Of a stretch of DNA of 64,000 nucleotides, positions 21,646 to 51,069 are shown in pieces (position 1 is the stretch's first letter; the number at the start of each line of letters is the position of its first letter). The notes under the pieces are model-generated. The model was given only the letters and a program-made list of their open reading frames with translations, had not been told where the DNA came from and did no database searches. A program made the translations under genes and the position numbers. The stretch comes from Coriobacteriales bacterium (GTDB taxonomy: Bacteria; Actinomycetota; Coriobacteriia; Coriobacteriales; QAMH01). The DNA is taken from the NCBI GenBank assembly GCA_051876105.1, contig JBJEHN010000072.1, positions 6,282-70,281 of the forward strand, given 5' to 3'.

Positions 21646-21682
21646 AAATGGGACAGTGGGGACTGTCCCCACTGTCCCATTC
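21646..21682. terminator. Conserved palindromic bidirectional terminator, copy a
   Basis: AAAATGGGACAGTGGGGA-CTG-TCCCCACTGTCCCATT lies between convergent genes (the + gene stops at 21642, rsmA stops at 21691). Confidence 0.75.
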
Positions 21683-22572: not shown

Positions 22573-23129
22573 CGCACCTCCTCTGCAATGGCGCGCGCCA
22601 GCTCCGGCACGCGCTCGAGCCGGTAGCTGCCGGCGGTGAAGTCGTGCACGCGCTGTGGCTCCAGGCGCAGGCCCGTGCTGTTGAGTGCGCTGGTGGCGAT
22701 GGCAACCAGCGGCTCGTAGCCGAAGGGGTCGCCGCCCTCCCCCACCGCCAGCAGGTGGGCCGGGCGCTTGGGCGGCAGAGGCCGGCCGAGCACGTAGCGG
22801 CGCGCCCAGTAGACCTGGCAGCGGTCGAGCGCGGCCTTGAGCCAGCCGCTGGGGCCGGCGAAGTAGACGGGTGCCACCACCACAGCGGCGCTGCAGGAGT
22901 CCATGTGACGGCTGAGCACGCCGAAGCCGTCCCCCGCGATCACGCACTCGCCCGTGGCAGAGCAGCTGCCGCAGCCCGTGCAGGCGGCGACGGGGTACTC
23001 GGCCAAGGGGTAGAGGCACACGCGGCAGCCCAGCTGGCGCAGCTCGCCGGCAAGCGCCTTGGCAAGGGCGGCGCTGCGGCCCTCCTTGCGCGGGGAGCCC
23101 ACCAGTATCAGGACCTCGGGTTGCGTCAC
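22569..23129 (-). CDS. Iron-sulfur flavoprotein-like (Isf / NADPH-dependent FMN reductase fold)
   Basis: VLILVGSPRKEGRS... flavodoxin-like N-terminus plus the compact Cys motif CTGCGSCSATGEC (CX2CX2CX5C). GTG start 23129 overlaps the tatD stop (GTGA) and follows GAGGAGGAG. Confidence 0.7.
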   Translation of the reverse strand: MTQPEVLILVGSPRKEGRSAALAKALAGELRQLGCRVCLYPLAEYPVAACTGCGSCSATGECVIAGDGFGVLSRHMDSCSAAVVVAPVYFAGPSGWLKAALDRCQVYWARRYVLGRPLPPKRPAHLLAVGEGGDPFGYEPLVAIATSALNSTGLRLEPQRVHDFTAGSYRLERVPELARAIAEEVR

Positions 23130-34332: not shown

Positions 34333-34788
34333 TCACAGCTCCCAGGCGCGCGTTGGCCCGACGACGCCGTCTGCGAGCTCCACGGTGAGGCACTGCCGGG
34401 CGCTGCCCTTGCGGGGCCTGCTGGCGCTGCCCGGGTTGATGATGCGGCACTCCCCCCTCACCTCGTCGCGCGGCACATGCGTGTGCCCGTGCACCACCAG
34501 CTTGTACTCGCCGCTGCGCGCCAGCGCCTCGGCGTCCTGCGGGTAGTGCGTGACCGCAAAGGGCACGCCGCCGACGATGCCGCACACCGTCTTGCGCACG
34601 GAGCTGCCGTAGTCCTGCCAGTCGTTGTTGCCCAGGCAGCAGTAGGTGGGTGCGATGGCCTCCAGCTCCCAGAGCACGCTGGGGCGCCCCATGTCGCCTG
34701 CGCAGATGATGTAGTCCACCCCTGCGAAGACGCGGTAGATGTCCTCGGAGAGGTCCCCGTGCACGTCGCTGATGATCCCCACCCTCAC
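34333..34788 (-). CDS. Metallophosphoesterase (YfcE/MJ0936 family)
   Basis: MRVGIISDVHGD...ICAGDM...GNND...VHGHTH... Confidence 0.8.
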   Translation of the reverse strand: MRVGIISDVHGDLSEDIYRVFAGVDYIICAGDMGRPSVLWELEAIAPTYCCLGNNDWQDYGSSVRKTVCGIVGGVPFAVTHYPQDAEALARSGEYKLVVHGHTHVPRDEVRGECRIINPGSASRPRKGSARQCLTVELADGVVGPTRAWEL

Positions 34789-34797
34789 GGCGCGCCC

Positions 34798-36033
34798 CTA
34801 GAACGCCCAGTTGCCGTTGCGGAACACGGGCACCGCGGTGCCGTCTGCGCGCAGGCCGTCGATGTTGAGGTCGTGAGTGCCGATCATGAAGTCGACGTGC
34901 GCGGCGCTCTCGTTGAGGCCGGCCTCCAGGAGCTGCTCGTCGCTGAGGTCGTAGCCGCCCTCGAGCACCTCCGGAAAGCCCTTCCCCAGCGCCAGGTGGC
35001 AGGAGGCGTTCTCGTCGTAGAGGGTCTCCAGGAAGAGCGTGCCCGTGTTGCGGATGGGGCTGTCAAAGGGCACCAGGGCCACCTCGCCCAGGTAGCAGGA
35101 ACCCTCGTCGGTCTGGATGATGCCGGCCAGCACGTCCTTGCCCACGCGGGCGTCCCACTCCACGGCGCGCCCCTCCTCGAAGCGGATCCAGAAGTCCTCC
35201 ACGGGGCTGCCGTTGTAGATGAGCGGCAGGGCGCTGTGGACCACGCCGCTGGTGAGCAGGCGCTGCGGCGAGGTGAAGATCTCCTCCGTGGGGATGTTGG
35301 GGAAGAAGTAGGTGCCGTCCGCGCCCTCCTGGCCCCCGCCCTCCCAGTGGCTGCCCTCGATGAGGCCCACCGTGAGGTCCGTGCCGTTGGAGGCGGTGTA
35401 GTGGAGCTGGGTGAAGCCCTGGGCGTTGAGCCAGGCCTTGCGCGCGTCGAAGCTGGCGCGGTGCTCGTCCCAGGCGGCGAAGGGGTCCTCCGTCACGCGC
35501 GAGGTGTCGAGTATGGCCTCCCACAGGGCGGCCAGGGCCTCCTCCTCGCCCAGCTCCGGGAAGACCTGCCTGGCCCAGGCGGGGCTGGCGGCGCCGGCGA
35601 TGCACCAGGCGCAGCGGCCGCGGTCGAGCGCGTCGTAGAACTCCTTGCACTGGCGGTGCCCCGCCACCACGCGCGCCATCACCTTGCGCTGGTCGACGCC
35701 CTTCATAATCTGGGGGTCGTCGCTCAGGATGGTGAGCACGGCGGCACCGTTGCGGGCCGCGCTGTTGTTGCGCAGGGCCGCCCACTCGGGCATGGTGTCG
35801 AAGACCTCCTGGGGCGCGTGGTCGTAGGTCAGGCGCTCCGTTGCCTGGTCGCCCCACTGCACGCTCACCAGCTTGGCGCCGTGCGCGTAGGCGGCGGCGA
35901 CCACCTTGCGCGTGAAGGCCGCCACCTCCAGCGGCGAGCGGACGAGCAGCTCCTGGCCCTCCTTCAGGGCGCAGCCCTTCACCACCAGCAGCTCGGCATA
36001 GCGCTCCAGGCGCTCCTCCAGGGTGCTCGGCAT
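34798..36033 (-). CDS. Aminopeptidase, M29 (AmpS/PepS/aminopeptidase T) family
   Basis: MPSTLEERLERYAELLVVKGCALKEGQELLV...YDENASCHLALG...HVDFMIG. Start ATG 36033 follows GGAGGAG inside the HK 3' end. The track ORF extension is spurious. Confidence 0.85.
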   Translation of the reverse strand: MPSTLEERLERYAELLVVKGCALKEGQELLVRSPLEVAAFTRKVVAAAYAHGAKLVSVQWGDQATERLTYDHAPQEVFDTMPEWAALRNNSAARNGAAVLTILSDDPQIMKGVDQRKVMARVVAGHRQCKEFYDALDRGRCAWCIAGAASPAWARQVFPELGEEEALAALWEAILDTSRVTEDPFAAWDEHRASFDARKAWLNAQGFTQLHYTASNGTDLTVGLIEGSHWEGGGQEGADGTYFFPNIPTEEIFTSPQRLLTSGVVHSALPLIYNGSPVEDFWIRFEEGRAVEWDARVGKDVLAGIIQTDEGSCYLGEVALVPFDSPIRNTGTLFLETLYDENASCHLALGKGFPEVLEGGYDLSDEQLLEAGLNESAAHVDFMIGTHDLNIDGLRADGTAVPVFRNGNWAF

Positions 36034-36035
36034 GG

Positions 36036-36965
36036 CTACTCCTCCCCTTCCTCGGTCTCTGCGGCGCCGTCCTCGGGCGGCAGGCTGGGCAGCGCCACGA
36101 TGAAGGCGGCGCCCGCGTTGGGCAGGTTGACGGCCTCGACCGTGCCGCTCATGGCGGTGGTGAGCGCCTTGACGATGGCCAGCCCCAGGCCGCTGTTGCC
36201 GCTGCCCTTGTGGCGCACGCGGCTCTGGTCTGCGCGGTAGAAGCGGTCGAAGAGGTGGCTGGGGTCCTCGTCGCCGAAGCCGGGGCCGTCGTCGACCACG
36301 GCGAACACGCTGTAGCCTTTGACGTAGCTGATCTCCACGCGCACGCGCTCCTTGGAGTAGCGGCTGGCGTTCTCGATGAGGTTCACCAGGATCTGGTTGA
36401 TGGCGTCTGCGTTGCCGTTGACGTCGGGCGCCTCGCCGCTGACCTCCAGGCGGCAGCCGCGCTCCTCCAGCAGCTCGCCCATGAGCAGGGCACAGTTGTC
36501 GGCCACGGCGCGCAGGTTGAGGCGGGAGAGCTCCATGTCCTGGCCCTCGGCCTTCTGGAGCGTGAGCAGGTCGTTTGCCAGGCGGGTGAGGCGGTCGCAC
36601 TCGTTGACGATCTGCGCGAGGAAGCGCCGCTGCAGCTCCTCCGGCACGCCGCCGTCGAGCAGGGTCTCAGCCGTGCCGCGGATGGCGGTCAGCGGGGTGC
36701 GGATCTCGTGGCTCACATCGCTCACGAACTGCGCCTGGCGCGCCTCCTCGGTGAGGAGCTCGTTGACGTTGTCGACGATGAAGTCCATGACCTCGCGCGG
36801 CGGGTTCTCCTTCTTGAAGTACTCGAGGACGGCGGGCGGCAGCTCGCGGGCGTAGAACTCCTCCGCAGTGGCGCAGCACTCGTCGCCGCCGCAGGCGCAG
36901 CCGTTCTCGCAGGCGCCCGCGCGGCGCGCCGCCTGGTGCTTCTTGTCGCTGTTGATGCCGGCCAT
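36036..36965 (-). CDS. Soluble sensor histidine kinase (HisKA + HATPase_c) with N-terminal Cys cluster, no TM segment
   Basis: H-box FVSDVSHEIRTPLTAI, N-box NLIENASRY, G-boxes DDGPGF and GSGLGLAIV. The N-terminus reads ...AGACENGCACGGDECCATAEEF with no hydrophobic helix. The ORF cannot extend upstream because coaX stops 10 nt away. Confidence 0.85.
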   Translation of the reverse strand: MAGINSDKKHQAARRAGACENGCACGGDECCATAEEFYARELPPAVLEYFKKENPPREVMDFIVDNVNELLTEEARQAQFVSDVSHEIRTPLTAIRGTAETLLDGGVPEELQRRFLAQIVNECDRLTRLANDLLTLQKAEGQDMELSRLNLRAVADNCALLMGELLEERGCRLEVSGEAPDVNGNADAINQILVNLIENASRYSKERVRVEISYVKGYSVFAVVDDGPGFGDEDPSHLFDRFYRADQSRVRHKGSGNSGLGLAIVKALTTAMSGTVEAVNLPNAGAAFIVALPSLPPEDGAAETEEGEE

Positions 36966-36977
36966 GGCTTCGACCTC

Positions 36978-37766
36978 CTAACTCGGGGCGCCGGCGCGGC
37001 GACCCCTGTTCTTCTCGTAGATGATGCGCAGGCCCTCGAGCGTGAGGTCCGGCTCGAAGGCGGTGATGGTGGTGGAGGCGCCCACGAGGTAGCGCCCCAG
37101 GCCGCCGCTGGCGATGACCGGTGCCTCGTAGCCCAGCTCCGCGAAGATGCGCTGCACCAGGCCGTCGATGCGCGCGACCTCGCCCAGCATGATGCCGCTG
37201 CGCATGGCGTCTGCCGTGTTGGTGCCGATGACGTGGGGCGGCACGGAGAGCCCCACCTGGGAGAGCAGCGCGCCATGCTTGAAGAGGCTGTCGGCGCCGC
37301 TGCGCAGGCCCGGGGCGATGATGCCGCCGCGGAAGGCGCCGGACTCGTCGACCACCTCGATGTTGGTGGCGGTGCCCAGGTCGACCACGACCACCGGCGC
37401 CCCGTAGCGCGCCACGGCGGCCACCGCGTCTGCCACGCGGTCCGCCCCCACCTCGGAGGGGTTGTCATAGCGCATGGGCAGGCCGCTCTTGACACCGGGG
37501 CCCACCACGACCGGCTTGCGGCCGGTGATGCGCTCGGCCACCTGCGCCCAAGTGCTCGTGAGCGAGGGCACCACGCTGGCCACCACGACGTCGCCGATGC
37601 ACTCGAGGCTGCGCCCGCCCAGCATGAGCTGGGTGTAGAGGGTCTGGTGGAGCTCGTCGGGCGTGTCCGCCCCGCGGGTGGTGACAGCCCAGCGGGCAAC
37701 CATCTCCGCGCCAAGGAAGAGGCCGGCGGTTGTCTGGGTGTTGCCGATGTCGACAGCGAGAAGCAT
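36978..37766 (-). CDS. coaX: Type III pantothenate kinase
   Basis: MLLAVDIGNTQTTAGLF...NPSEVGADR...VVVDLGTATN...TNTADAMRSG. Start ATG 37766 follows AGGAGG. Confidence 0.9.
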   Translation of the reverse strand: MLLAVDIGNTQTTAGLFLGAEMVARWAVTTRGADTPDELHQTLYTQLMLGGRSLECIGDVVVASVVPSLTSTWAQVAERITGRKPVVVGPGVKSGLPMRYDNPSEVGADRVADAVAAVARYGAPVVVVDLGTATNIEVVDESGAFRGGIIAPGLRSGADSLFKHGALLSQVGLSVPPHVIGTNTADAMRSGIMLGEVARIDGLVQRIFAELGYEAPVIASGGLGRYLVGASTTITAFEPDLTLEGLRIIYEKNRGRRAGAPS

Positions 37767-37921
37767 AGTGGTCCTCCTGTTGGAAGGTGCACTGCACGTG
37801 GATACCGATGGTACTGCAACATGGCAGCAGCACGGTAACAAAGCAGCATGCCGCAGCGGCCCGCATGACACAATGGTCTCACTCAGGAAACCCCCGGGCA
37901 CAGCCCGCTAAGGAGGCAGCC

Positions 37922-38644
37922 ATGGAAGAACTCACCGAGCAGCGCATCCTCGTGGTCGATGATGAGGAAAGCATCACAGACATCGTCAGCTTCAATCTGC
38001 TGAAGGAGGGCTACAAGGTCGATGTCGCCCACAGCGGCGACAAGGCGGTTGCCATGGCCAAGGCCAGCGAGTACGACCTCGTGATCTTGGACGTCATGCT
38101 CCCCGGCATCGACGGCTACGAGGTCTGCCGCCGCATCCGCAGCGCCTCCAATGTCCCCGTCCTCTTCCTCTCCGCGCGCGACACAGAGCTCGACAAGGTC
38201 GTGGGCCTGGAGCTCGGCGGCGACGACTACCTCGCCAAGCCCTTCGGCATCCGCGAGCTGCTGGCCCGCGTGCACGCGCTCCTGCGCCGCGCTCCCCAGC
38301 AGGGCAACTCCATGGAAGAGGGCGTGCGCGTGCTCGACGTCAGCGGCGTGCACCTGGACGAGGCCGGCCACCGCGCCACCTACAACGGGACGGAAATCGA
38401 GCTCACCCCGCGCGAGTTCGAGCTGCTGGCCACGCTCATGGCCCATGCGGGCACCGTCCTCGGCCGCGAGCAGCTGCTCAAGGAGGCCTGGGACTGGCAG
38501 TACGTGGTGGAGACCAAGACGGTCGACACCCACATCAAGCGCCTGCGCGACAAGCTCTCCAGCGTCGGGCTGAGCCCCAGCGTCATCGAGACCGTCCGCG
38601 GCTACGGCTACCGCTTCGTCAAGAACTTCGTGAACCCCGCCTAG
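37922..38644 (+). CDS. OmpR/PhoB-family response regulator
   Basis: RILVVDDEESI...LVILDVMLPGIDG...DDYLAKPF plus a winged-helix ...TVDTHIKRLRDKL...VRGYGYRF. ATG 37922 follows AAGGAGG. Confidence 0.92.
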   Translation: MEELTEQRILVVDDEESITDIVSFNLLKEGYKVDVAHSGDKAVAMAKASEYDLVILDVMLPGIDGYEVCRRIRSASNVPVLFLSARDTELDKVVGLELGGDDYLAKPFGIRELLARVHALLRRAPQQGNSMEEGVRVLDVSGVHLDEAGHRATYNGTEIELTPREFELLATLMAHAGTVLGREQLLKEAWDWQYVVETKTVDTHIKRLRDKLSSVGLSPSVIETVRGYGYRFVKNFVNPA

Positions 38645-38660
38645 GCCAAGCAACACACAC

Positions 38661-38707
38661 AAAAAAAAATGGGACAGTGGGGACGTACCCCACTGTCCCA
38701 TTTTTTT
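38661..38707. terminator. Conserved palindromic bidirectional terminator, copy b
   Basis: A9-TGGGACAGTGGGG-ACGTA-CCCCACTGTCCCA-T7 lies between the convergent RR (stop 38644) and htrA-like gene (stop 38721). Confidence 0.8.
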
Positions 38708-38720
38708 GGCCGGACGGAGC

Positions 38721-40256
38721 TTACTCCCAGAAGCCGCCGTTGCCGCTGTCGCCGCCCTGCATGCTCTCGAGGAAGTCCTCCAGGCTGTAGCCGTAGCCGC
38801 CGTAGCCGTAGCCTTGCTGGCCCTGGCTCTGGCTCTGGCTCTGGCTCTGGCTGCCGCCGCTGTTGCTGTCGAGCTGGCTGGAGAACTGCGTCTGGTCGAG
38901 CTCGCTGCCGGTGGTGAGGGTAGCGGTGGCGCTCATGGCCTTGCCGTCACGCGTGTACTCGAGGTCCACCTTGTCGCCGGCCTTGAGCGGAGCCATGGCG
39001 GCCTTGAGGTCGCTGTAGGAGTTGACGCTGGTGCTGCCCACCTTGGTGAGCTTGTCGCCCGCCTTCAAGCCCGCCTTGTCGGCCGCGGAGCCCTTGATGA
39101 CGCCGGTGACGGTGAGGCCGTCGCTGCCGGTGCTGGCGTTGCCGGTGGTGACGCCCAGGAAGGCGGACTCCACGTTGCCGCCCTTCTCGATGATCTCCTC
39201 CACCAGGGACTGCGCGGTGCTCTGCGGGATCGCAAAGCCCAGGCCGGCGTTGCTCTCCGAGTACGAGGCGAGGTACTCGACGATGCCGATGAGCTTGCCG
39301 TCGGCGTCGACGAGCGCGCCGCCGGAGTTGCCTGGATTGATGGCGGCGTCGGTCTGGATGACGTCTGAGTTGTAGTAGGTGTTGTTGCCGTCCTGAACGG
39401 CGGCGTTGCGGCCCAGGGCAGAGACGATGCCCACGGTGCAGGTGCTCTCATAGCCTAGCGGCGAGCCGATGGCCATGCACCACTCGCCCACGGTGAGGCT
39501 GGCGGAGTCGCCCCACTCGGCAACGCTCAGGCCGCCCACGGGGATGGTGACCACCGCGAGGTCTGCCTCGGAGTCGTAGCCCACGGCGGTGCAGTCGTAG
39601 GTCTGGCCGTTGACGGTGACGGTGGCCTTGGAGCAGTCCTCAAGCACGTGGTAGTTGGTGACGATGTAGCTCTTGTCAGCGTCGCTGCGGATGATCACGC
39701 CGGAGCCCAGGCCGTTGGGGCTGGTGGAAGACGAGGAGCTGCCGCCGAAGTACTGGCTCCAGCTGCTGTTGGCGGAGTACACGTAGATGGTGACCACGGA
39801 GTCGAGGCACTTGGCGCTCACGGCCTGCGCAAGCGTGGGGTCCTCTGCGTGCTCGACCGTGATGGTGCCGCTTGCGCCGCTGCCGCCGCGGAAGATGTTG
39901 CCCGCCGGCGTCAGCCCGAAGACGAGCCCCGCGGCCACCACCACGCACAGGGCGCCTGCCGCGCCGCCGCCGAAGGCCTTCCAGAAGCCGCCGCCCTTGG
40001 AGGCCTTGCCCTTCTCGGCACGCTGCTGCTCGCGGGCTTGGCGGCGCTCTTCCTTGTTGGCGGCGCGCTCCGCTGCCTCTGCTTCCTTGCGCAGGCGACG
40101 GGCCTCGGCCTCTGCGTCACGCGCGCGGCTGGCGTCCATGCCGGCCTGCGCAGCTGCGCTCTGGGCACGCCCGTAAGCAGCGTCTGCCGCTTCCTGGCGC
40201 TGGTCTTGGCTCATGCCCTCGGGCGGGACGGGCGCACCGTTGGGGTACTCGCTCAT
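38721..40256 (-). CDS. HtrA/DegP-like trypsin-fold serine protease with PDZ domain, membrane-anchored
   Basis: Charged N-terminal region plus a TM (AAGALCVVVAAGLVFGL). Catalytic-triad context is TNYHV...D...GNSGGALV. PDZ-like LGV...GSAADKAGLKAGD. C-terminal SQSQSQ/GYGYGGYGY low-complexity tail. Confidence 0.85.
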   Translation of the reverse strand: MSEYPNGAPVPPEGMSQDQRQEAADAAYGRAQSAAAQAGMDASRARDAEAEARRLRKEAEAAERAANKEERRQAREQQRAEKGKASKGGGFWKAFGGGAAGALCVVVAAGLVFGLTPAGNIFRGGSGASGTITVEHAEDPTLAQAVSAKCLDSVVTIYVYSANSSWSQYFGGSSSSSTSPNGLGSGVIIRSDADKSYIVTNYHVLEDCSKATVTVNGQTYDCTAVGYDSEADLAVVTIPVGGLSVAEWGDSASLTVGEWCMAIGSPLGYESTCTVGIVSALGRNAAVQDGNNTYYNSDVIQTDAAINPGNSGGALVDADGKLIGIVEYLASYSESNAGLGFAIPQSTAQSLVEEIIEKGGNVESAFLGVTTGNASTGSDGLTVTGVIKGSAADKAGLKAGDKLTKVGSTSVNSYSDLKAAMAPLKAGDKVDLEYTRDGKAMSATATLTTGSELDQTQFSSQLDSNSGGSQSQSQSQSQGQQGYGYGGYGYSLEDFLESMQGGDSGNGGFWE

Positions 40257-40405: not shown

Positions 40406-40443
40406 AAAATGGGACAGTGGGGACGTACCCCACTGTCCCATTT
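40406..40443. terminator. Conserved palindromic terminator, copy c
   Basis: AAAATGGGACAGTGGGG-ACGTA-CCCCACTGTCCCATTT, 9 nt after the permease stop (40452). Confidence 0.75.
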
Positions 40444-40451
40444 CTGTGCTG

Positions 40452-41495
40452 CTAGAGGATGCCGAGGAGCTCGGTGACGAGGCCGAAGGCGATGCCCACC
40501 GCGACCATGATGCCGCAGATGCGCAGGTTCTCACGTGAGTCGTTGTTGGTGCGCATCAAGACGATGAGACCCACGCCGGCGTTGACGAGCAGACCGCTCA
40601 TCATGGCGCCGCCCGCCAGCGCGCCGTCCAGGTAGAGCTGGGTGAGCGCCACGGAGACGGCGCAGTTGGGGATGAGGCCCAGCACCGCGGCGACGGCGGC
40701 TCCGGCCAGGGGCATCTCGGCCATGTGGGCGATGGCGCCCTCGAGGCCCGCCTCGACCACCAGGTTGAGCAGCAGGCAGATGATGAAGACGAAGACCGTG
40801 ATGTGCAGGCTGTGGCGCAGCGCGGCGAAGGCCAGGTGGCCCCACTTGAGCTGGCCGTGGTCGTGGCCGTGGTCGCAGCAGCCGTGCTCGTGCGCATGCT
40901 CGTGGGCACCCCCATGCTCGTGCTCATGCTCGTGCTCGTGCGCATGCGCGTGCCTCTGGGGCTCCAGGTAACGCTCGCAGCTGGAGCAGTCGCACCCGTC
41001 CGCGCAGTCGCAGCCCTCCTGGGCGCAGAGCTCGCGGATGTCGTTGCCGCTGTGGCCTTGGTGCAGGTGCACGCTGCCCAAGCCCACGTGCTCGCGCCCG
41101 GCGGCGCGCAGGGCGGCATCCAGGCAAAAGCCCACCAGCACGCCCACAACCAGCTTGATGCCCAGCACCTTGGCGATGACGAGCGGGTCTGCCTGCTGCG
41201 AGATCATGACGGGCAGCATCTCGTCCGATGTGACGAGGAAGACGGAGACCAGCGTGCCCAGAGTGATGACGCGCCCGGCGTAGAGCGTGGCCGCCGCCCC
41301 GCTGAAGCCGCACTGGGGCACGATGCCCAGGATGCCGCCGATGACGGGGCCCGCCTTGCCGGCCTTGGCTATCGCCCGCTCAAAGCGCTCGGCCGCGCCG
41401 TGCTCCAGCCATTCCATGAGGAGGTAGGTGAGAAAGAGGAAGGGCAGCAGCTTGAGGCTGTCGAGCCCGGCGTCGATCAAGGCGTCAAGAAACAA
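40452..41495 (-). CDS. Multi-pass membrane protein resembling the putative 10-TM heavy-metal exporter family (ArsP_2-like) with central Cys/His-rich loop
   Basis: The hydrophobic halves flank the loop ...CAQEGCDCADGCDCSSCERYLEPQRHAHAHEHEHEHEHGGAHEHAHEHGCCDHGHDHG... The family name is from memory of the general architecture and has not been searched. Confidence 0.6.
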   Translation of the reverse strand: MFLDALIDAGLDSLKLLPFLFLTYLLMEWLEHGAAERFERAIAKAGKAGPVIGGILGIVPQCGFSGAAATLYAGRVITLGTLVSVFLVTSDEMLPVMISQQADPLVIAKVLGIKLVVGVLVGFCLDAALRAAGREHVGLGSVHLHQGHSGNDIRELCAQEGCDCADGCDCSSCERYLEPQRHAHAHEHEHEHEHGGAHEHAHEHGCCDHGHDHGQLKWGHLAFAALRHSLHITVFVFIICLLLNLVVEAGLEGAIAHMAEMPLAGAAVAAVLGLIPNCAVSVALTQLYLDGALAGGAMMSGLLVNAGVGLIVLMRTNNDSRENLRICGIMVAVGIAFGLVTELLGIL

Positions 41496-51029: not shown

Positions 51030-51069
51030 AAAAATGGGACAGTGGGCTACGTCCCCACTGTCCCATTTT
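51030..51069. terminator. Conserved palindromic terminator, copy d
   Basis: AAAAATGGGACAGTGGG-CTACGT-CCCCACTGTCCCATTTT, 14 nt after the argG stop (51083). Confidence 0.75.

Follow-up and report, generated by a model that had tools for sequence, protein, structure and literature searches.

We have analysed a two-component system (TCS) encoded in a 64,000-nucleotide stretch of DNA from a Coriobacteriales bacterium (assembly GCA_051876105.1, contig JBJEHN010000072.1, positions 6,282 to 70,281), hereafter the window. At this locus, an operon on the (-) strand encodes a type III pantothenate kinase (CoaX), a soluble histidine kinase (HK), an M29 aminopeptidase and a metallophosphoesterase, and an OmpR-family response regulator (RR) is encoded divergently from coaX. 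To our knowledge, almost all studied sensor kinases read their signals via a folded sensor domain (periplasmic, transmembrane (TM), PAS, GAF or HAMP). Here, a conserved TCS of abundant gut Coriobacteriales appears to have shed its membrane module, with about 75 residues left before the dimerization and histidine phosphotransfer (DHp) domain of the kinase, and these residues include a cluster of five cysteines.

The soluble kinase, its response regulator and their relatives

The kinase gene (36036..36965, (-) strand; 309 amino acids) is defined by its open reading frame (ORF), its ribosome-binding site (RBS) and ATG, its Pfam domains, the core of its AlphaFold2 (AF2) model and an exact database match, i.e. 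MGN0038429.1 at NCBI from a metagenome-assembled genome (MAG) labelled Coriobacteriales bacterium. The ATG (36965) is directly preceded by TAGGAGGT, a strong Shine-Dalgarno sequence with a GGAGG core ending 8 nt upstream. The coaX stop codon is embedded in this RBS and the gap from the coaX stop to the kinase ATG is 12 nt, correcting the 10 nt given in a preliminary description of the locus. A wrong start codon, which would leave the Cys-rich leader untranslated, is ruled out by the spacing of this RBS, by the end of coaX 12 nt upstream and by the conservation of the leader as protein. Thus, the strong RBS together with this conservation in homologues fixes the start of the leader.

Only two Pfam domains are recognized in the kinase, HisKA (residues 77-141, E=6.3e-21) and HATPase_c (residues 185-294, E=2.5e-20). 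The phospho-acceptor His86 (36708..36710, (-) strand), identified by the H-box match and its codon position, lies in the H-box SHEIRTPLT, and this H-box together with an E-x-x-T phosphatase motif assigns the protein to the class I HisKA kinases. The N, G1, F and G2 boxes (NLIENASRY, DDGPGFG, FDRFYRAD and GNSGLGLAIV) are present and are invariant in the family. Accordingly, there are 85 residues before the phospho-acceptor, with the HisKA match beginning at residue 77, and this replaces an earlier count of about 70 residues before the H-box. By contrast, the earlier account of a 309-residue kinase without a hydrophobic segment and without PAS, GAF or HAMP domain agrees with the ORF, the Pfam matches and the hydropathy, and the catalytic boxes are intact.

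No Pfam domain is assigned to residues 1-76. When the N-terminal 72 residues were searched at E<=10, Pfam returned only noise (WBP-1, 13.8 bits, E 0.097, cutoff 28.1) and PDB sequences returned no match; the kinase also had no match to PAS or GAF at E<=10. It has no match to Pfam HAMP, and its similarity to the HAMP region of orthologues is limited to a weak alignment of residues 40-72 with the AS2/linker part. The highest Kyte-Doolittle mean over 19 residues is 1.22 and falls within the catalytic domain, while membrane-bound homologues reach 2.4-2.9; because of this difference, we conclude that the kinase has no TM segment and, hence, is soluble. The two TM helices with a loop of less than about 25 residues that characterize intramembrane-sensing kinases are absent from the window kinase and are seen in more distant orthologues.

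The AF2 model, based on an alignment of 27 sequences, has a mean predicted local distance difference test (pLDDT) score of 77.8. In this model, helices at residues 34-41 and 44-53 are followed by a continuous helix at residues 57-104 that contains His86. Confidence is low for residues 1-30, with pLDDT below 50 at residues 1-15 and 17-28, and block means are 70-87 over residues 31-70. A fold search with the model retrieved only generic kinases with a DHp and a catalytic and ATP-binding (DHp-CA) core, and this core superposes on HK853, YycG/WalK, CusS and HprS.

A search of 5.8 billion proteins, clustered at 90% identity, identified about 95 clusters of short kinases (262-345 residues, most 274-315) that are 61-93% identical to the window kinase and that are restricted to MAGs labelled Coriobacteriales, Coriobacteriaceae or Coriobacteriia. 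We define the soluble coaX-linked family by an ELPP-x-V...PP-x-EV-x-DFI linker before EEARQAQFVSDVSHE, by the lack of TM segments and by C123 and C158, all of which are found in the window kinase. Over 27 diverse members, the family core, in which the conserved linker leads into EEARQAQFVSDVSHE, has a mean column identity of 69%. The linker is a helical segment of residues 33-72 (36750..36869, (-) strand; AEEFY-x2-ELPP-x-V-x-EYF-x4-PP-x-EV-x-DFI-x-D-x2-NEL) that is delimited by conservation in the soluble family, the AF2 model and hhalign. It joins the leader to DHp helix 1, and P43, P56 and V59 are invariant across the family. A search of the N-terminal 72 residues against 1.84 billion representatives revealed no relatives of the linker outside the soluble family.

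The next-ranked homologues have 340-365 residues and are 51-64% identical to the window kinase. In these longer proteins, from Eggerthellaceae and others, two TM helices with a minimal loop are followed by HAMP, i.e. they have an intramembrane-sensing architecture. With hhalign, residues 40-299 of the soluble family align at 56% identity, and with a probability of 100%, with residues 104-364 of the TM family. In this alignment, residues 40-72 lie over the AS2-to-DHp segment of the TM/HAMP orthologues with low per-column confidence, and the linker may be what is left of the HAMP AS2/signalling helix. The TM/HAMP orthologues, e.g. P0098 and the kinase of Raoultibacter timonensis (L003), share with the window system a DHp-CA core that is 51-57% identical, a near-identical H-box and DHp helix 2, an orthologous OmpR-type RR (62-69% identical) and an adjacent coaX. 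They differ in having two TM helices and HAMP, in an RR-HK gene order, and in having neither the Cys-rich leader nor C158. The DHp specificity regions and surfaces are near-identical between soluble and TM kinases. Because the cores are 56% identical, the DHp regions near-identical, the RRs orthologous and coaX adjacent in both cases, we regard the soluble and the TM kinases as orthologues. As far as architecture and orthology are concerned, the soluble kinase very probably derives from an intramembrane-sensing HAMP kinase. In other words, the comparisons indicate that, in the window lineage, a leader of about 75 residues that is found nowhere else took the place of the TM helices and of most of HAMP. 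We also considered that the kinase might be split, its TM/HAMP part being encoded by another gene, but tblastn of the N-termini of orthologues against the window gave no match. In the literature on TCSs of Coriobacteriia and on soluble kinases with Cys-rich N-termini, we found nothing directly relevant. Neither the fold of the kinase nor its RR nor Cys-based sensing as such is new; the novelty lies in an uncharacterized family, restricted to Coriobacteriia MAGs, in which the TM/HAMP input of a conserved TCS is replaced by a unique leader that, in the window clade, bears a metallothionein-like Cys knot.

The RR (37922..38644, (+) strand) has 240 amino acids with Response_reg and Trans_reg_C domains. 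By tblastn, the 64 kb encode one RR and one HK, in line with the earlier statement that the only nearby RR is the one divergent from coaX. The RR shares 83-94% identity with its soluble-lineage counterparts and 62-69% with the operonic RRs encoded directly upstream of orthologous TM kinases. Moreover, it adjoins the kinase locus in eight of the nine soluble-lineage contexts in which the upstream flank is on the contig. Because the RRs are orthologous and the DHp surfaces nearly the same, the divergent RR is, by orthology, almost certainly the cognate partner of the kinase.

Upstream of the RR gene, the box TGTTAC-CGTGC-TGCTGC (37824..37840, (-) strand; family consensus YGTWAY-N5-YGY) is a candidate autoregulatory site for the RR. 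It lies 28 nt upstream of the -10-like CACAAT of the RR gene (37869-37874, (+) strand). YGTWAY-N5-YGY is present at the same relative position, upstream of a -10-like TACAAT or CACAAT, in nine of nine RR upstream regions of the soluble lineage (the window, L001, L081, L083-L085, L087, L089 and L090), and it is kept in L087 although coaX is not divergent there. RR autoregulation via the box is plausible. The box resembles what we take to be the consensus of WalR (TGTWAH-N5-TGTWAH) and of PhoP.

Cysteines of the leader and of the core

The leader contains the segment C19-x3-C23-x-C25-x4-C30-C31 (36873..36911, (-) strand), exactly as first described. All five codons are TGC (C19, 36909-36911; C23, 36897-36899; C25, 36891-36893; C30, 36876-36878; C31, 36873-36875), and the segment has low pLDDT in the AF2 model. 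The remaining 278 residues contain three Cys (C123, C158 and C171). By our own rough estimate, the chance of five Cys in 13 residues is about 1e-4 or lower for any one protein. Of the other real genes in the window, only that of the ArsP_2 permease clearly reaches a comparable Cys density, in its loop, and one ORF near 22988 that passed the filter possibly does so as well. Searched as an independent domain against the 1.84 billion representatives, the N-terminal 72 residues retrieved one fragment of the family and otherwise only a spurious translation of a repeat and a protein with saposin repeats.

In the window clade, the leader probably consists of a basic helix (KHQAARRAG) followed by the Cys segment. 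Relatives with at least 80% identity comprise 16 sequences with 11 distinct leaders, and all 16 have 4-7 Cys between KHxAA(R/K)xAG and TAEEF. Their leaders vary in spacing and at almost all other residues (CENGCACGGDECC, CENGGCACDGKERC, CECQDDECCAQGCC, CECEGGSCEGGTC, CNCSKDCCDDGTC), and neither indels nor substitutions bring the number of Cys below four. The 90% cluster of the window kinase itself has three leader variants with five, five and four Cys, one of which lacks C30 and instead has a Cys at position 6. The minimal pattern within this cluster, C-x3-4-C-x-C-x4-5-C, is what would be expected if selection maintained a thiolate knot with four or more ligands.

Of the 86 distinct leaders in the family, 42 have a Cys at the C31 position, on both major branches, and 23 have CxC. 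In other clades, a CxC lies at -10/-8 from the ELPP helix, with -10 homologous to C31, and further clades have no leader Cys. Because CxC is found on both sides of the attachment point of the TM outgroup in the family tree, it is probably ancestral to the soluble family and was lost several times. The first soluble ancestor probably had a CxC from which the Cys at the C31 position would derive. Ahead of the ELPP helix, the length of the leader varies widely among clades, from 16 to more than 90 residues. Each clade has its own conserved pattern of a basic stretch and then Cys.

Many members of sister clades (including P0026, P0027, P0032, P0047, P0058, P0063, P0065, P0070 and P0083) have a C-terminal tail of about 25 residues, W-x2-TAPCAHLD-x-(T/S)-(I/L), with a conserved Cys-x-His. 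Proteins with this tail often have the leader CxC and a Cys at position 72 as well, and all three features are present in 17 of 94 members. The window clade lacks the tail and C72 and instead has the expanded leader knot; this pattern could be a relocation of ligands.

Two of the Cys outside the leader are conserved. C123 (36597..36599, (-) strand) in DHp helix 2 (NECDRL) is a Cys in 98 of 99 soluble members and in 15 of 21 TM homologues. C158 (36492..36494, (-) strand), which lies in the first catalytic-domain helix (DNCALL), is a Cys in 97 of 99 soluble members and in one of 21 TM homologues. That C158 is nearly fixed in the soluble lineage alone suggests that thiol chemistry became relevant upon loss of the membrane input, and C123 and C158 may form a thiol switch in the core. 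This near-fixation is a concrete and testable lead, and C158, together with the maintained set of at least four leader Cys, keeps a redox or metal reading alive.

Models for signal input

We propose a model in which a soluble TCS kinase receives its input through a Cys knot and controls an envelope output. For this full explanation we estimate a probability of roughly 45%, and we put it forward as tentative. In this model, the window protein is, as judged from the sequence comparisons, the cytoplasmic kinase/phosphatase of a TCS that is conserved across Coriobacteriia and usually linked to coaX. The leader knot of at least four Cys would most likely ligate a metal ion or an Fe-S cluster, or form disulfides; two CxC motifs in a kinase dimer would provide four thiolates. 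Low AF2 confidence, as in residues 1-30, is typical of metal-dependent loops. The occupancy or oxidation state of the knot would set the packing of the N-terminal helices (residues 34-53), this packing would bias the DHp helix, and the DHp bias would in turn shift the balance between kinase and phosphatase activity at His86. The output would probably be cell-envelope homeostasis, including HtrA and wall-polymer genes, and not a dedicated metal-resistance regulon, with an RR that is autoregulated and has a WalR/PhoP-like DNA specificity.

Several observations weigh against this model. The Cys positions are not fixed even within the close clade, which fits a loose metal knot and, equally, relaxed constraint. 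Among the 86 distinct leaders, 38 (44%) have a Cys at neither ancestral position. The immediate sister lineages (P0015-18, P0020 and P0021) have 0-2 Cys before the ELPP helix, with none there in P0017, P0018 and P0020 and one further on, at position 72, in P0018. Because these leaders and the closest sisters lack the Cys cluster, the kinase family evidently works without it. The leader has no similarity to known metal-binding domains in Pfam, PDB or the 1.84 billion representatives. The ArsP_2 permease is adjacent in only three of nine contexts, and its adjacency does not track the Cys content of the leader. Finally, no regulon emerges from the RR-promoter box: the window shows no enrichment of the WalR or the family consensus, and no copy was found upstream of htrA. 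Because the leader Cys pattern is not kept across orthologues, Cys-based sensing is at most a clade-specific or a repeatedly lost input. Of the minimal cytoplasmic redox/metal-sensing kinase of the preliminary description, the minimal soluble kinase is real, while a Cys pattern conserved across orthologues is not; at least four leader Cys hold for all close relatives, and family-wide the C31 position is a Cys in fewer than half of the leaders. Since only the closest relatives keep the leader knot, an input through this knot is not how the whole family senses. As a clade-specific metal, Fe-S or thiol input, the knot is plausible.

There are precedents for such an input. Staphylococcal NreB and AirS pair with NarL-type regulators via HisKA_3-type cores. 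By contrast, the window kinase has no PAS/GAF fold, a leader of about 30 residues that is predicted to be disordered, a HisKA core and an OmpR-type RR, and membership in the NreB/AirS type is ruled out by this domain architecture. NreB and AirS are sensor kinases controlled by a cofactor with Cys ligands (PMC8774646, PMC13478379), and the cluster is housed in a PAS domain in NreB (PMC13478379) and in an N-terminal sensor domain in AirS (PMC8774646). PdtaS of Mycobacterium tuberculosis is a cytoplasmic kinase that is inhibited directly by Cu and NO via a dicysteine motif; this motif lies inside an N-terminal GAF domain, and PdtaS signals to an RNA-binding RR (PMC8131098). PdtaS is, like the window kinase, actinobacterial and fully cytoplasmic, but it has a GAF domain and the window kinase has none. 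Thus, NreB, AirS and PdtaS are precedents for a Cys-based input to a cytoplasmic kinase, with NreB (PAS) and PdtaS (GAF) using a folded sensor domain. The top PDB sequence match of the window kinase core is SrrB of S. aureus (6PAJ). SrrB has a redox-sensitive Cys pair in its catalytic domain, to which C123 and C158 are possibly analogous. However, SrrB is membrane-bound with PAS and HAMP, and C158 and C171 align with non-Cys residues of SrrB. By pattern only, the leader motif C-x-C-x4-C-C (in relatives C-x-C-x4-C-C-x3-C-C), set among Gly, Asp and Glu, resembles the thiolate motifs of CopY and metallothionein, in which CxC, CC and CxCx4CxC form Cu(I)/Zn(II) thiolate knots; it differs from these in that there is no detectable homology and that the spacing varies between close relatives.

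The knot may also be structural. As a Zn(Cys)4-type site or a dimer staple, it would stabilize an N-terminal cap, and the signal would come from a partner that docks on helices 33-56. Intramembrane-sensing kinases typically rely on accessory proteins (e.g. BceS, LiaS and GraS), and the ancestor was very probably such a kinase with a minimal loop. In addition, segment 33-72 is far better conserved across the family than the Cys, at least four Cys is the number for one tetrahedral site, and Cys-less members evidently still function. However, the neighbourhood contains no conserved candidate gene for a partner, the upstream gene being coaX in most loci and a YfhO gene in L089; nor is a split-off TM/HAMP fragment encoded in the window, and a purely structural site would usually keep a fixed spacing. 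We consider a structural role rather unlikely. Alternatively, the leader could be a disordered tail that evolves fast and is largely dispensable, on a default-on kinase/phosphatase that is set by its expression level (coaX operon, autoregulated RR promoter) or by C123/C158. Five Cys in 13 residues are, however, very unlikely to arise by drift, the Cys count of the window clade survives indels and substitutions with apparent compensation (C30 lost, C6 present), and the clades have specific, conserved leader patterns (basic stretch, then Cys). Such a tail would account for leader lengths of 16 to more than 90 residues, for the 44% of leaders with Cys at neither ancestral position and for pLDDT values below 50 in residues 1-30. 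It would also fit that C123 and C158 are near-invariant, C158 in the soluble lineage only, and that every locus keeps the kinase gene tightly coupled in translation to the gene before it. Overall, we hold a dispensable leader to be unlikely.

In NCBIfam, the kinase is nearest to PnpS (189 bits, cutoff 400), then WalK (152 bits, cutoff 725), PhoR (149 bits, cutoff 334) and MtrB, and the RR is nearest to CreB, YycF, PhoB (226 bits, cutoff 296) and MtrA. Because all scores are below cutoff, the TCS lies outside every named equivalog. WalK/VicK and PhoR/PnpS of Firmicutes are the best core matches by sequence and structure (PDB VicK 4i5s, YycG 4u7o/4zki), and the HtrA-type protease beside the window TCS is reminiscent of htrC/yyxA, which we take to lie beside walRK in B. 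subtilis. In contrast to WalK (NF033092) and VicK, the window kinase has no TM, extracellular, HAMP or PAS part, matches in the core only, and is without yycHIJ genes; membership in WalK is ruled out by the 152 bits against 725, the core-only match and the lack of TM, HAMP and PAS. For a phosphate-regulon kinase of the PhoR/PnpS/SenX3 type, the signal would be cytoplasmic and come from PhoU/PstB, the membrane sensor would be dispensable and the Cys incidental. PnpS is the best match of the kinase with PhoR third, the RR scores well against PhoB models, and the RR-promoter box read in the direction of the RR gene resembles what we take to be PhoP-type TTHACA repeats. Nevertheless, these scores are far below cutoff (PnpS 189/400, PhoR 149/334, PhoB 226/296), no pst or phoU gene is present in the 12 contexts examined, the kinase has no PAS domain, and the neighbours are envelope genes. 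We therefore regard a role in the phosphate regulon as highly improbable. Also very doubtful is a reading in which the whole soluble family is a cytoplasmic sensor of thiol status. In this reading, the DHp-CA core would contain a redox or S-thiolation switch made up of C158, specific to the soluble lineage, and the older C123. The leader Cys (CxC in the ancestor, a knot of 4-7 Cys in the window clade) and, in sister clades, C72 and the Cys of the APCAHL motif would be interchangeable metal/Fe-S antennae, and thiol, metal or coenzyme A (CoA) homeostasis would be coupled to an envelope-stress regulon in strictly anaerobic gut Actinobacteria. The switch could be CoA-dependent because the kinase is translationally coupled to a pantothenate kinase.

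Should the knot function as an input, it would rank among the smallest sensory modules known on a histidine kinase and be easily transplanted or engineered, and it would give a handle on the sensing of metal and oxidative stress in strictly anaerobic gut Actinobacteria. A family-wide thiol sensor, if it exists, would take its input without a folded sensor domain of any kind, PAS and GAF included. If the knot is not the input, the family would still be a natural experiment on the rewiring of a kinase after loss of its membrane sensor.

Operon and gene neighbourhood

The first gene of the operon is coaX (36978..37766, (-) strand; Pfam Pan_kinase, 1.8e-59; NF009855, 248 bits, cutoff 233). The kinase gene is followed by the gene for an M29 (AmpS/PepS-type) aminopeptidase of 411 amino acids (34798..36033, (-) strand; Pfam Peptidase_M29, 7.8e-154) and, as the fourth gene, by that for a YfcE-family metallophosphoesterase (34333..34788, (-) strand; Metallophos_2, 3.2e-31; TIGR00040, 71 bits, cutoff 56). 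As reported earlier, the last codons of the kinase gene (GGG GAG GAG TAG) carry the RBS of the M29 gene, whose ATG (36031-36033) lies 2 nt past the kinase stop. The gap between the M29 and YfcE genes is 9 nt. Within coaX-HK-M29-phosphoesterase, no terminator-like site was found on the (-) strand of the operon, and only two weak 5-bp stems are present on the (+) strand. The M29 gene follows the HK gene in six of nine other soluble-lineage loci (L081, L084, L085, L087, L088 and L090), and the phosphoesterase gene has the same operon position in L081, L082 and L087. In the relatives L081 (11999-13999) and L082 (11896-13896), both at 82% identity, genes for an S8 subtilisin-like peptidase and a 666-residue hybrid kinase (HisKA-HATPase-REC) are located between the phosphoesterase gene and rpoB. 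The window lacks these two genes, and the operon directly abuts the rpoB leader.

An RR gene divergent from coaX-HK is the layout of the soluble lineage in the window, L001, L081/82, L083, L084, L085 and L090. In L087, the RR gene is co-directional and a symporter gene is inserted. In L089, the gene for a 929-residue YfhO membrane protein replaces coaX, and its stop overlaps the start of the HK gene, i.e. the two are translationally coupled; in every locus, the kinase gene is tightly coupled in translation to its upstream gene. In the TM lineage, L086 has coaX-RR-HK, while coaX is divergent from RR-HK in L002 (Eggerthellaceae) and L003 (Raoultibacter). Thus, coaX stays beside this TCS through several rearrangements, in soluble and TM lineages alike. 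We take CoaX to belong to the Baf family, first described as Bvg accessory factor.

Convergent with the RR gene is a gene for an HtrA/DegP-like serine protease with one PDZ domain (38721..40256, (-) strand; Trypsin_2 and PDZ), which adjoins the RR gene in five of nine soluble-lineage contexts (the window, L083, L084, L085 and L090). The next gene encodes a permease of the ArsP_2/'arsenic efflux' family with an expanded Cys/His-rich cytoplasmic loop (40452..41495, (-) strand; PF11449; NF037962, 297 bits, cutoff 100), and this gene adjoins htrA in the window, L084 and L090 only. It had been suggested that both proteins are part of the same response as the kinase; adjacency recurs in five of nine contexts for HtrA and in only three of nine for the permease. 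TarI/TarJ-like, MurJ-like and amidase genes lie near the kinase gene in L088 and L089, and a glycosyltransferase is among the other neighbours. Together with the RR-promoter box, the presence of HtrA, YfhO and teichoic-acid genes in the neighbourhood points to a role in the cell envelope, and it argues for an envelope system over a dedicated metal or redox regulon.

The ArsP_2 permease keeps the conserved motif LH-x-GH-x-G-x-DI...GCxC, in which GCxC echoes NGCAC of the kinase leader. Its loop near 40870-41040 is greatly expanded and Cys/His-rich (GCDCADGCDCSSC...HAHAHEHEHEHEH...HGCCDHGHDHG), and this expansion is absent from the homologues in L084 and L090.

A 29-nt hairpin, GGGACAGTGGGG-N5-CCCCACTGTCCC, occurs four times in the window (21650-21678, 38671-38699, 40411-40439 and 51036-51064), with one mismatch in one copy and none in the other three, where no copy is expected by chance. 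Spurious ORFs render it as MGQWGTSPLSHF. The copies on either side of htrA are flanked by A- and T-runs and separate htrA from the RR and ArsP_2 genes, and the hairpin looks like a bidirectional terminator resembling repetitive extragenic palindromic (REP) elements.

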